From positions 1-64,000 of IMG/VR virus record IMGVR_UViG_3300037309_000179: a DNA stretch of 64,000 bases; one strand, given 5' to 3'. A program made the translations under genes and the position numbers. The notes beneath the pieces were generated by a model. It made no database searches and had not been told where the DNA came from. It saw nothing but the letters and a program-made list of their open reading frames with translations. This DNA is from a virus. Numbering within the stretch: position 1 is the stretch's first letter; each line of letters starts with the position of its first letter. Of this stretch, positions 36,037 to 37,936 are shown one piece after another.

Positions 36037-36443
36037 CCTGCAACTCATTCCGGTGTGCCGTTGGAGTTGCCGCGTCACGGGCGGTTGTTCGACAAGCAGA
36101 AGTAGCTGCACCTGCAACTCATTCCGGTGTGCCGTTGGAGTTGCCGCCCGCTTTCCATCATTCGCCACGCGGCGTGACGTATGCCTGCAACTCGTTCCGG
36201 TGTGCCGTTGGAGTTGCCGCGATAGTGGTCTTGCCACTCGTGTGGCGACCCACCCCCCTGCAACTCGTTCCGGTGTGCCGTTGGAGTTGCCGCGCCGAAC
36301 GTGCGGCCGAGTCGCTCGTGTGGGCAGTCCCTGCAACTCGTTCCGGTGTGCCGTTGGAGTTGCCGCGATGCCGCCAGCAGTCCACCCCGCTCAGGCCGAC
36401 GCACGACCTGCAACTCGTTCCGGTGTGCCGTTGGAGTTGCCGC
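36037..36443. CRISPR. CRISPR array: 6 repeats of 37 nt, 5 unique spacers (37, 36, 36, 36, 40 nt)
   Basis: Repeat CCTGCAACTC[A/G]TTCCGGTGTGCCGTTGGAGTTGCCGC at 36037, 36111, 36184, 36257, 36330 and 36407, with an internal stem GCAACTC/GAGTTGC. Repeats 1-2 carry A and repeats 3-6 carry G at position 11. Confidence 0.9.
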
Positions 36444-36589
36444 GACGCCCGACCGAAGTCGATTCCGCGGCCTGATGTTGGGCGTATCCCGCGAGCGGTG
36501 TCCGGGGTCCAGCCCCGGCCCTGTTTCGCGTTCGGCCTGGCAGTGGCCGTAGGTCTTCTCACACCGGTTTTTGCGGCACGCGAGCGGGG

Positions 36590-37936
36590 TCATTCGCCGA
36601 CCCCGCCCTCCGCCTGGGCCTCCTCAAGGGTTTGGAACCGAATCCCGCCCGCATCGCAGTTCTGCCGCACTCGCTCTCGCAGGGCGAAATAGCGGTAGTG
36701 GCGGGCGTAGGTCTGATCCGTGTCGTCGTACACCACCGCCTCCACGCGATTCCGGCGGAGGAACCCGGCGACGCACGCGGCCACCTGTTTGGTGATCGTG
36801 TCCACGCGGTTGGCGTACTTCGCGCGCGCCGCCGCCCCCGCCTCGACGAACCGCCGCCGCCGGCGGGCCGGCCACCGCTTCTCGGACTTCAGGTCGTCGG
36901 CCCTGGCGTCGCGGTGCCGCTCGTGCCGCTCGCCGTGCCGCAACAGGTCCTCGACCGACTGCTCCGCCCGCTCGTGCGACGACAGCCGGCGGGCCGCCCG
37001 CTGCTCCGCCGACAGGTGCCCGAGCAGGTCGCGGCGGTGGACGACGAACGGGGCGTCCCGCTGCGGCAACTCCACCACCAGCAGCGCCAGCGGGTCCGTC
37101 CGCACCACCGCCGTCACCCCGGACGGCTCGGCCGGCCGCCGCCGGAACCGCCCGGCCGCCATCAGCTTCACCCCGGACAGCTTGCCGTTCGCCATGTCCG
37201 CGCACACCTTCACGTCGCCCAGCACCGCCGCACCCGTCACCAGCGCGTCGAAGTCCCGCACCTGCCGCCGCCAGTCCCGCCCCTGGTCCACCCGCAGCCG
37301 CACCCGCCCGACGCCGGGCAGCAGCACGTCCGCCACCGGGAACCGCCCGCCGGGGTGGTCCTGCCAGGCCAGATCGACCGCCTGCCCCGGCACGTGGACG
37401 GGGAACGGGAACCGGTACGTGCAGGCCGACGCCTCCCCGAGCCACAGCACCGCCACGCGGGTGTTCCGCCCGGCCGCCGTCCGCCCGGACTTCCACTTCT
37501 GCTCCACCGCCCGCATGGTGGCGGCCGCGGCCTGGGTGCTACCGTCCCAGGCGTCCCGGATCGCCGCCGGGCACACCTCGTTCCACCGGCGGTACAGGTT
37601 GAGGGCGGTGAACGGCGGCAGCCGGGTCATGTCCGGCGTCCGCCGGGTGTCGTGCCGCAGGAGTTCGGTCATCGCCCAGTTGGCCAGGTCGGTGCTCAGC
37701 CGCCACGCCCGCAGGAACGGCTCGAAGAACCGCCCGCGGAAGTCATCCGGGGTGAACCAGCCGCGGTCGACAGTGCCCATCACCTCTTTCACCTGGAGGC
37801 GGACGCACCGGTTCACCCACCCGGCGGCCACGCACGCCGGGCACGTCGGCCCGACCCCGGGAACGTCCTTCCACCCCTTCGGCAGGCGGGGCCGTTCGGC
37901 CGCCGCCCCGCACGCCCCGCACCGGAACAGGGTCAT
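36590..37936 (-). CDS. Array-adjacent 448-aa protein: candidate compact TnpB/Cas12-like RNA-guided protein lacking the TNB finger and RuvC-III
   Basis: ATG 37936 (ATGA coupling). N-terminal CGAC-x22-CPAC. The C-terminal block ANRVDTITKQVAACVAGFLRRNRVEAVVYDD...YFALRERVRQNCDAGGIRFQTL is RuvC-II-block-like. The ORF itself is solid; the family assignment is inference. Confidence 0.5.
   Translation of the reverse strand: MTLFRCGACGAAAERPRLPKGWKDVPGVGPTCPACVAAGWVNRCVRLQVKEVMGTVDRGWFTPDDFRGRFFEPFLRAWRLSTDLANWAMTELLRHDTRRTPDMTRLPPFTALNLYRRWNEVCPAAIRDAWDGSTQAAAATMRAVEQKWKSGRTAAGRNTRVAVLWLGEASACTYRFPFPVHVPGQAVDLAWQDHPGGRFPVADVLLPGVGRVRLRVDQGRDWRRQVRDFDALVTGAAVLGDVKVCADMANGKLSGVKLMAAGRFRRRPAEPSGVTAVVRTDPLALLVVELPQRDAPFVVHRRDLLGHLSAEQRAARRLSSHERAEQSVEDLLRHGERHERHRDARADDLKSEKRWPARRRRRFVEAGAAARAKYANRVDTITKQVAACVAGFLRRNRVEAVVYDDTDQTYARHYRYFALRERVRQNCDAGGIRFQTLEEAQAEGGVGE

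Follow-up and report, generated by a model that had tools for sequence, protein, structure and literature searches.

We find that a phage-borne locus in a 64,000-nucleotide (nt) stretch of DNA, positions 1 to 64,000 of IMG/VR virus record IMGVR_UViG_3300037309_000179 (this whole stretch is the window below), brings together three parts: a gene for a 448-amino-acid (aa) protein related to Cas12f and TnpB, a structured scaffold RNA encoded directly behind the gene, and a CRISPR array whose first repeat is the end of that scaffold. The protein is a profile-level homolog of Cas12f with the fold predicted for it, its catalytic positions are replaced or missing, the RNA co-varies between related loci, and protein, scaffold and array occur together across a family. 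We read the locus as an RNA-guided system in which a dead Cas12f-like protein binds DNA without cutting it, a reading to which we give a probability of roughly two in three (about 0.68). An earlier inspection of the letters alone, here called the sequence-only reading, had proposed a self-contained, adaptation-less, single-protein RNA-guided system on a temperate phage; fold, profile homology and the co-occurrence of protein, scaffold and array support that proposal.

The array consists of six exact 37-nt repeats, CCTGCAACTC[A/G]TTCCGGTGTGCCGTTGGAGTTGCCGC, starting at positions 36037, 36111, 36184, 36257, 36330 and 36407, and of five spacers that are all unique and measure 37, 36, 36, 36 and 40 nt by rising coordinate. 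Repeat position 11 is A in the first two copies (36037 and 36111) and G in the other four, the two variant repeats being those distal to the scaffold. None of 100 dinucleotide-preserving shuffles gave such a repeat match. On either strand the repeat folds into a 7-base-pair (bp) GCAACTC/GAGTTGC stem with an inner 3-bp stem. The sequence-only reading had listed the same six starts, unique spacers of 36-40 nt and the internal stem, and all of these are confirmed. The array is probably read from the minus strand, judging from the strand of the scaffold model and from the same-strand order of scaffold before array that holds across loci (except L007); on that strand each array repeat begins with GCGGC. 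The non-coding trailer that follows the last repeat could be a sixth, fixed guide.

The effector gene opens with an ATG at 37936 that overlaps the stop codon of the upstream gene, a start that is supported because homologs keep the N-terminal CxxC...CxxC, which in the effector forms a CxxC..CxxC zinc ribbon at residues 6-36. Its stop codon lies 146 nt from the array end (36443). The description of this open reading frame (ORF) as a minus-strand gene co-oriented with its surroundings holds: a GC-frame plot and a gene call based on GC at third codon positions place all genes between 33191 and 58834 on the minus strand and mark 35960-36590 as non-coding. Taken singly, the 448-aa sequence has no match in Pfam, PHROGs, NCBIfam, PADLOC or PDB sequences, and tblastn against 50,697 GenBank phages found none. 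An AlphaFold2 model built from an eight-homolog alignment (predicted local distance difference test, pLDDT, 82.8; predicted template modelling score, pTM, 0.57) was searched against PDB with Foldseek; the best match is AsCas12f (expectation value E=1.7e-14 over 423 columns, near full length), and all 45 PDB structure matches at E<=1e-3 are Cas12f, TnpB, Cas12m/k/o/X, Cas-pi, Cas-lambda, other Cas12-type effectors or Fanzor. Matches in a viral structure library are TnpB-like 'transposases'. As modelled, the effector shares the WED-REC-RuvC (RNase H-like) fold of the TnpB/Cas12 superfamily; the lack of a RuvC/TnpB-like fold is what the sequence-only reading had named as one refutation of its proposal. 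Profile comparison leads to the same relatives: a profile of 61 family members finds OsCas12f (8.7e-13), AsCas12f (~1e-6) and SpCas12f1 (2.8e-6) among PDB sequences, whereas the solved natural dCas12f 9n9c reaches E=0.57 only. By this measure the family is a sequence-level homolog of Cas12f, detectable at profile depth only. As a separate observation, the best structure match in the viral library, BFVD entry A0A1P8DIN8 (467 aa, E=3.5e-14), is 19% identical to the effector, against 7-11% for ordinary viral TnpB-like proteins, and may be a family member from a sequenced virus deposited in UniProt.

The catalytic site of this fold is not intact. The family segment 'lvvrTdp' aligns to Cas12f 'ILGVDMG/IMGIDLG' and puts T280 at the position of the RuvC-I Asp; among 159 members this position is Thr in 144 (91%), and Asp is outside the five commonest residues. 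'VVYDD' (402-406) aligns to Cas12f 'IQMED/IQIEN', with D404 at the RuvC-II Glu position, which agrees with the resemblance of the C-terminal third to the RuvC-II neighbourhood seen from the letters alone. The effector then ends after a 'GIRFQT' strand, the point from which Cas12f goes on to 'TSQRC', the TNB zinc finger and RuvC-III. Across the 159 members the tail past the YDD motif has a median of 48 residues, a CxxC motif occurs in 0 of 12 longer tails, and the RuvC-III/zinc-finger segment is absent from every member examined. The canonical RuvC D-E-D triad thus reads T-D-absent. By the criteria that define TldR and dCas12f the family would be nuclease-dead, and the protein is most likely a binder rather than a nuclease. 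One subfamily (P0008, P0013, P0046, P0067, P0068, P0095, P0115, P0082 and the L008 protein) is without the N-terminal zinc ribbon and carries a C-terminal extension of ~70-80 aa with a conserved '...W(L/M)...(R/K)xGSHPAVS' followed by an S/T/P/R-rich tail, and no zinc finger.

The second part of the system lies in the gap between gene and array. The sequence-only reading had given the length of this gap correctly, at 146 nt, and had passed over its content: it is a conserved sequence on the gene strand, which encodes the scaffold RNA and whose 3' end is the first repeat. In L001, L002, L003 and L006 the homologous genes have the same scaffold sequence on their 3' side, and in L004, L008, L010 and others the gene is followed by a diverged form; one stretch of the scaffold reads CTACGGCCACTGCCAGGCCGAACGCGAAACAGG...CACCGCTCGCGG... 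RNAalifold finds compensatory changes in 20 of 25 pairs. In an alignment of ten sequences with a hand-specified structure (A3), 87.5% of cells are paired, where shuffles give 64.5% and slid controls 33-45%, and 30 of 36 pairs show double changes; in an alignment of 13 sequences (A5) the values are 79.7% against 60.0% and 31-45%, with double changes in 35 of 42 pairs, and the A5 structure includes a pseudoknot helix of which all five pairs co-vary. Single-sequence folding of scaffold plus repeat is not more stable than that of shuffles (z=-0.95), and among the tests of RNA structure covariation alone is informative. A covariance model (R1), built from A5, finds one full copy in the window, at 36407-36554 on the minus strand (133 bits, E=4.8e-30), and gene-strand copies in nearly all loci with sufficient flank; outside its training loci it matches L019, L020 (two copies), L016, L009, L007 and a second copy in L010. 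A scaffold immediately precedes every array except that of L007.

Two segments of the scaffold are candidate anti-repeats. Anti-repeat 1 would pair with the last scaffold base, C, and the first five nucleotides of the repeat, GCGGC; its helix (A5 columns 90-95/117-122) has 88.5% of cells paired and compensatory changes in six of six pairs, and it is common to the family, the repeat always beginning with the 3' strand of the helix. Anti-repeat 2, a possible pseudoknot of 8 bp with the repeat loop, was matched by 2 of 500 shuffles. It occupies the same position and co-varies in L001 (CGTTGGTGTG/CACACCAACG), L002 (TCCGGTGTG/CACACCGGA) and L006 (CCTGATGG/CCATCAGG), and was not detected in distant members, being limited to the window's subgroup. 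Each array repeat keeps the sequences that pair with the scaffold, which supports, without proving, that the scaffold may act in trans on spacers 2-5 in the manner of a trans-activating CRISPR RNA (tracrRNA). We also note that the motif CCGCTCGCG occurs twice in the scaffold region on the minus strand, at 36579-36587 directly after the stop codon and at 36453-36461 in the invariant core (CACCGCTCGCGG); a single CGCGA segment is a possible pairing partner for either copy, a hint of alternative structures.

How widely are these parts found together? A word-indexed homolog search had returned eight proteins and the impression of a tiny family, which was overturned by an exhaustive profile search of 1.84 billion cluster representatives: 927 clusters, counted at 50% identity, match at E<=1e-3 and 436 at E<=1e-30. 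The members are mostly 355-560 aa long (median 423), and the matches reach the end of the profile. A sample of ten members consists wholly of metagenomic sequences without a name, 0 of 61 has a Pfam match, and the family, encountered in this analysis in phage and metagenome DNA only, has no name and no Pfam, PHROG, NCBIfam or PADLOC model. A narrow peptide-pattern search of genomes found no relative, although such patterns do not establish absence. Arrays of 3-19 repeats adjoin the gene in 12 of 18 informative loci (the window, L007-L010, L015-L018 and L020-L022), and a single guide or none is found in the other six (L001, L002, L004, L012, L014 and L023); L005 is an ambiguous nineteenth. The close relatives L001, L002 and L004, with 61-65% protein identity, carry the scaffold, one repeat and a unique guide, the single repeat-like unit reading ...GGCACACC..TTGCAGG before unique sequence begins, which is the single-guide layout of an omegaRNA. 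Distant relatives (24-37% identity) carry scaffolds with arrays whose repeat sequences are mutually unrelated. Throughout the family the repeats measure 36-39 nt and the spacers, unique in 11 independent arrays, typically 34-40 nt. Scaffold and repeat are associated with the protein family in more than 20 loci, the repeats changing together with their own scaffold. That the array is unrelated to the ORF had been considered when the first two homolog loci proved to have no array; the scaffold and single repeat in these two loci and the arrays of distant relatives overturned this.

Single loci depart from the common order. In L007 (2237-2620) the scaffold comes after the array and has its own 20-bp closing stem, resembling an already separate tracr-like unit. 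Repeat copies flank a scaffold in L005 (1-345, 1943-1982), where a second scaffold starts right after the gene. The order in L009 (2085-2831) is scaffold, array, gene, and L010 (4006-5872) and L020 (1594-2309, 4576-5373) have two units of scaffold plus array each.

The gene stands in a phage-like setting at every locus with readable context. In L001 and L002 it belongs to early operons that also encode a LexA/CI-type repressor, ERCC4, methylases, DUF4326 and a RecD2-like helicase; in L004 and on the P0008 contig it lies beside an integrase and a CI-like repressor, and in L010 beside the small terminase subunit. L007-L010 are IMG/VR viral contigs of 33-119 kb. No partner gene is conserved across the loci, and this includes fliC, oppF, csrA and rpoE; beside the long arrays of L010 and L020 there are no adaptation genes. 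In the window, none of the 87 predicted ORFs has a Pfam match to Cas1, Cas2, Cas4 or any further Cas family, in line with the claim that the 64 kb hold no cas1, cas2 or cas4, and PADLOC has no match for the three proteins nearest the array. Apart from this, the RecD2-like helicase of L002 (3421-6912) is 1163 aa long against 807 aa in L001 and has a LAGLIDADG_3 match, which suggests an intein or a homing-endonuclease insertion.

What the guides are directed against can be approached from the spacers. None matches the phage itself, related loci, GenBank phages or GenBank plasmids, and 60 spacers from 11 family arrays gave no credible cross-matches among the sequences compared. Seed scans of IMG/VR with the five spacers returned one match, of spacer 5 to contig L028; it was judged a chance match, being exactly 20 nt long and stopping at the searched 20 nt, with 21 of 37 positions identical overall, on an unrelated viral contig of 36% GC. 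Since the spacers are several, unrelated to one another and without a match in the phage, competing mobile elements or host loci would be the likeliest targets; diverse multi-spacer arrays without self-targets favour the former.

We infer the following course of events. The primary transcript would yield one omegaRNA-like guide, made of scaffold, repeat 1 and spacer 1, as well as further CRISPR RNAs (crRNAs), each made of a repeat and a spacer. These crRNAs would pair in trans with the scaffold through the first five nucleotides of the repeat, GCGGC, and scaffold GCCGC, and in the window's subgroup additionally through the repeat loop CACACCGG and scaffold CCGGTGTG, in a manner comparable to a tracrRNA:crRNA duplex. 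The ribonucleoprotein would then bind complementary double-stranded DNA (dsDNA) next to a target-adjacent motif (TAM) and block transcription or replication without cleavage. By analogy with TldR, dCas12f and Cas12m, which have been characterised by experiment and share its protein architecture or its logic, RNA-guided binding without cleavage is most likely. The window and its single-guide relatives appear to document how one and the same protein lineage changed between omegaRNA-type guide and CRISPR array.

Several considerations weigh against this reading. The structure is a prediction from an alignment of eight sequences (pTM 0.57), and TM-scores to Cas12f are ~0.5. The acidic residues D348, E352 and D404/D405 are 77-97% conserved and could build a non-canonical active site, by which cleavage or RNA processing would be possible. 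The anti-repeat that is universal in the family is just 5-6 bp long, the 8-bp loop pairing being confined to the window's subgroup, and the strand, the RNA ends and the pairing in trans are all inferred from sequence. There is no credible protospacer in the phage, related loci, GenBank phages and plasmids or IMG/VR, and the arrays would have to gain spacers without Cas1-Cas2.

The conserved acidic residues lead to a competing explanation, in which the protein is RNA-guided and still a nuclease, with a rearranged site composed of D404/D405 and D348/E352 that cuts DNA or, as in Cas12m, only processes precursor crRNA (pre-crRNA). The lid-region motif D348-x-K350-x-E352-x-R354 is kept in 155-156 of the 159 members (97%), above D404 (125 of 159); TnpB branches with rearranged, probably active catalytic sites are described by Altae-Tran et al. 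2023 (PMC10691335), and an RNA-processing RuvC retained by Cas12m in PMC10442227. However, the predominant Thr at RuvC-I and the loss of the RuvC-III/zinc-finger segment speak for inactivation, this truncation is also the one by which TldR and dCas12f, dead in experiments, are recognised, and the segment D348-R354, with its placement relative to D404, is modelled at low confidence (pLDDT ~47-60). On balance we regard a surviving nuclease as improbable. A different question is whether the system, built as we describe, serves as a dedicated transcription factor for phage or host genes, as in TldR-like lysogenic conversion, and not against competing elements. Its closest relatives carry a single fixed guide, like TldR; the neighbouring integrase and CI-like repressor in L004 and on the P0008 contig are typical of genes expressed in lysogeny; and TldR is itself phage-encoded and represses host fliC. 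On the other hand, no spacer matches the phage itself, and arrays of up to 19 repeats with diverse spacers fit variable foreign DNA better than a fixed regulon. The single-guide relatives and the positions in lysogeny modules make such a regulatory role conceivable, with the odds against it.

Two further explanations deny that protein and array form a working pair. The array might be a hitch-hiking mini-array that borrows a host Cas effector, the neighbouring ORF being functionally unrelated. Phage mini-arrays without cas genes are well documented (Medvedeva 2019 and Faure 2019, as cited in later work). Exact-pattern scans, the only kind made for the repeat and made without knowledge of the host, found zero matches to its 31-nt core in 185,579 species genomes, in metagenome contigs and in IMG/VR; the same repeat in a host array beside canonical cas genes is what the sequence-only reading had named as a refutation of its proposal. 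More decisive than these zero matches is the co-occurrence of protein, scaffold and array with unrelated repeats: a co-varying scaffold tied to the protein family ends 3' in the repeat, the repeat differs between loci in step with its scaffold, and single-guide relatives keep scaffold, repeat and guide beside the gene even where there is no array. Given this family-wide linkage we reject a borrowed host effector, which seems scarcely credible. It is likewise very improbable that the locus is a degenerate TnpB-omegaRNA insertion of the IS200/IS605 or IS607 type whose repeats are a non-functional tandem duplication of the omegaRNA 3' end. Such an origin would suit the TnpB-like fold, a guide RNA placed, as OMEGA systems have it, 3' of the gene, and the likeness of the single-guide relatives to omegaRNAs, yet neither the window nor the annotated homolog loci have a TnpA or serine recombinase Pfam domain, and no transposon ends were noticed, though without an explicit search for ends. 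Moreover, the gene sits at syntenic early-operon positions in related phages, the 927 clusters keep full-length proteins with strongly conserved motifs, and duplication of a single guide would not give the unique, CRISPR-like spacers of 34-40 nt seen in 11 independent arrays.

Features of the locus and of the surrounding phage genome in the window. Strands of RNA elements are those predicted; guide and anti-repeat roles are proposed.
Feature	Position	Strand	Sequence or remark
Effector gene, 448-aa protein of predicted Cas12f/TnpB fold	36590..37936	-	AlphaFold2, Foldseek and family profile
Scaffold RNA, structured, omegaRNA/tracrRNA-like	36444..36589	-	runs straight into first repeat
Candidate anti-repeat 2/pseudoknot	36560..36567	-	CCGGTGTG, exact complement of repeat loop CACACCGG
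Candidate anti-repeat 1	36466..36471	-	GCCGCG, pairs with last scaffold base C and first 5 nt of repeat, GCGGC
CRISPR array, 6 x 37-nt repeats	36037..36443	-	minus-strand form GCGGCAACTCCAACGGCACACCGGAA[C/T]GAGTTGCAGG
Repeats	36407-36443, 36330-36366, 36257-36293, 36184-36220, 36111-36147, 36037-36073
Spacer 1, 40 nt	36367..36406	-	TCGTGCGTCGGCCTGAGCGGGGTGGACTGCTGGCGGCATC, contiguous with scaffold and repeat 1
Spacer 2, 36 nt	36294..36329	-	GACTGCCCACACGAGCGACTCGGCCGCACGTTCGGC
Spacer 3, 36 nt	36221..36256	-	GGGGTGGGTCGCCACACGAGTGGCAAGACCACTATC
Spacer 4, 36 nt	36148..36183	-	CATACGTCACGCCGCGTGGCGAATGATGGAAAGCGG
Spacer 5, 37 nt	36074..36110	-	TGCAGCTACTTCTGCTTGTCGAACAACCGCCCGTGAC
Non-coding trailer after last repeat	35959..36036	-	hairpins, no T-run; then DUF4326 gene
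DUF4326 gene	35482-35958		directly after array trailer
Large terminase (TerL)	4840-6822		Pfam/PHROG scans
HK97-type capsid	9645-10991		Pfam/PHROG scans
Tape measure	15470-17794		Pfam/PHROG scans
RecT/YqaJ	54631-56452		Pfam/PHROG scans
Tyrosine integrase	61625-62845		Pfam/PHROG scans

Judged by its genes, the window, of ~74% GC, is the genome of a temperate siphovirus-like phage; besides the genes in the table it has two DNA methylases and an HNH endonuclease. The closest GenBank TerL is ~32% identical and comes from unrelated hosts, and does not point to a host for this phage. A consensus scan for promoters and terminators gave no usable signal in DNA of 74% GC. The same long minus-strand operon encodes, ~5.5 kb upstream of the effector and not adjacent to it, a 91-aa protein with sigma-70 region 4 only (43418-43693, minus strand; Pfam Sigma70_r4, E=4e-6), which recalls the partnership of dCas12f with sigma-E. 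A tRNA-Ile(GAT) gene lies at 33071-33144, downstream of the effector operon, and the two closest homolog loci have tRNA-like sequences directly in front of the effector gene (L001 ~8550-8625, L002 ~1800-1870). Elsewhere in the window, a perfect tandem repeat of 4 x 18 nt (GCCGCCGTCAGCCCGCCG) at 20983-21096, within the tail-region ORF 19249-21264, probably codes for a repetitive Ala/Pro-rich segment, and a 1062-aa protein (1080-4268, minus strand) probably binds the receptor or forms a tail fibre, as it weakly matches the N-terminal domain of Mtd (major tropism determinant) and the C-terminal domain of a phage depolymerase.

If confirmed, the family, with its ~930 clusters at 50% identity, would be a large newcomer among the few natural "dCas" systems, and one that is invisible to Pfam, PHROGs, NCBIfam and PADLOC. 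It would also offer an evolutionary snapshot, in which proteins that share 61-65% identity use a single omegaRNA-type guide in some cases and an array built from the last 37 nt of the same scaffold in others, and which bears on how TnpB omegaRNAs give rise to type V arrays and tracrRNAs and on array growth without Cas1-Cas2. A natural DNA binder of ~420 aa that takes several guides would be an attractive chassis for compact CRISPR interference (CRISPRi), base editing and epigenome tools, and the findings suggest that temperate phages of high-GC hosts carry programmable silencers. A bolder proposal, which we advance tentatively and against somewhat unfavourable odds, is that the family is an undescribed, widespread, phage-borne type V-like subtype: a constitutively dead Cas12f derivative of ~420 aa and a living intermediate between omegaRNA and CRISPR, in which the scaffold, fused in cis to the first repeat, would serve the downstream crRNAs in trans, sister phages would change between single and multiple guides, phages would employ it for programmable, multiplexed CRISPRi against rivals or host genes, and arrays would grow without Cas1-Cas2.

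Close conceptual precedents, namely TldR, dCas12f and Cas12m, temper the novelty of this system. Hoffmann et al. 2026 (PMC13472631) describe naturally dead dCas12f with a minor cluster that is associated with CRISPR arrays, the repeats of which resemble the 3' end of the guide RNA (gRNA) scaffold. The family resembles dCas12f in its Cas12f-type fold, in a C-terminal truncation that removes part of the RuvC site and in a scaffold with a 3' guide, and some dCas12f loci also carry full-length gRNAs plus scaffold-like CRISPR arrays. Yet dCas12f is found on Bacteroidetes chromosomes, mostly with sigma-E/HTH genes, whereas the present family is phage-linked at all loci with readable context and has no adjacent sigma factor, and its profile is far nearer to active OsCas12f than to dCas12f, as the E values given above indicate; the two probably represent independent inactivations. 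With TldR (Wiegand et al. 2023/2024) the family shares the compact TnpB fold, a degraded RuvC, the C-terminal truncation that removes RuvC-III and zinc finger, and the omegaRNA-like guide 3' of the gene; one TldR clade is found on temperate phages, and TldR acts as a CRISPRi-like repressor. TldR has one fixed guide and is linked to fliC, oppF or csrA, whereas the present family often has multi-spacer arrays and no conserved partner. The likeness rests on published descriptions; no sequence link to TldR was seen, in searches of which none was a comparison aimed at TldR sequences.

Cas12m (type V-M) likewise pairs a compact effector with an array, usually without adaptation genes, occurs on plasmids and some prophages, and interferes by binding and transcription block instead of dsDNA cutting; it differs in its size (~600 aa), in a complete though altered RuvC that processes pre-crRNA, in needing no tracr-like scaffold, and in its Foldseek score (E 1e-7, against 1e-14 for Cas12f). 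Cas12f (V-F) and TranC (Jin et al. 2025) are the closest relatives in structure and sequence. They share the N-terminal zinc finger followed by the WED-REC-RuvC layout; their long tracrRNA pairs at two segments with the repeat, as the present scaffold may, and in TranC an omegaRNA has split into tracrRNA and crRNA; however, they are active, with an intact D-E-D triad and TNB zinc finger, whereas the present scaffold is fused in cis to repeat 1, and no Pfam OrfB_Zn_ribbon or Cas12f1-like TNB match was found in any of the 61 members. The compact type V systems of phages (Cas-phi/Cas12j, Cas-lambda, Cas12p 'hacker', Cas12r of Thermus phages, MvCas12m of myxophages) are also phage-borne and adaptation-less, with one effector, a short array and proposed roles in inter-element conflict, but all keep catalytic RuvC residues, measure 500-800 aa, and in none has fusion of an omegaRNA-like scaffold to the first repeat been reported. 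As for groups without a name, Altae-Tran et al. 2023 (PMC10691335) describe inactivated Cas12f-derived TnpB, sketch a scenario from Cas12f to omegaRNA, and list ~40 unnamed V-U groups, 15 of them from metagenomes only and some with altered catalytic sites. We found no paper that describes the family, its scaffold or the coexistence of single guides and arrays; it may be among those V-U groups. Taken together, the family falls demonstrably inside none of the named clades and, by analogy, most likely works as a binder of the dCas12f, TldR and Cas12m type.

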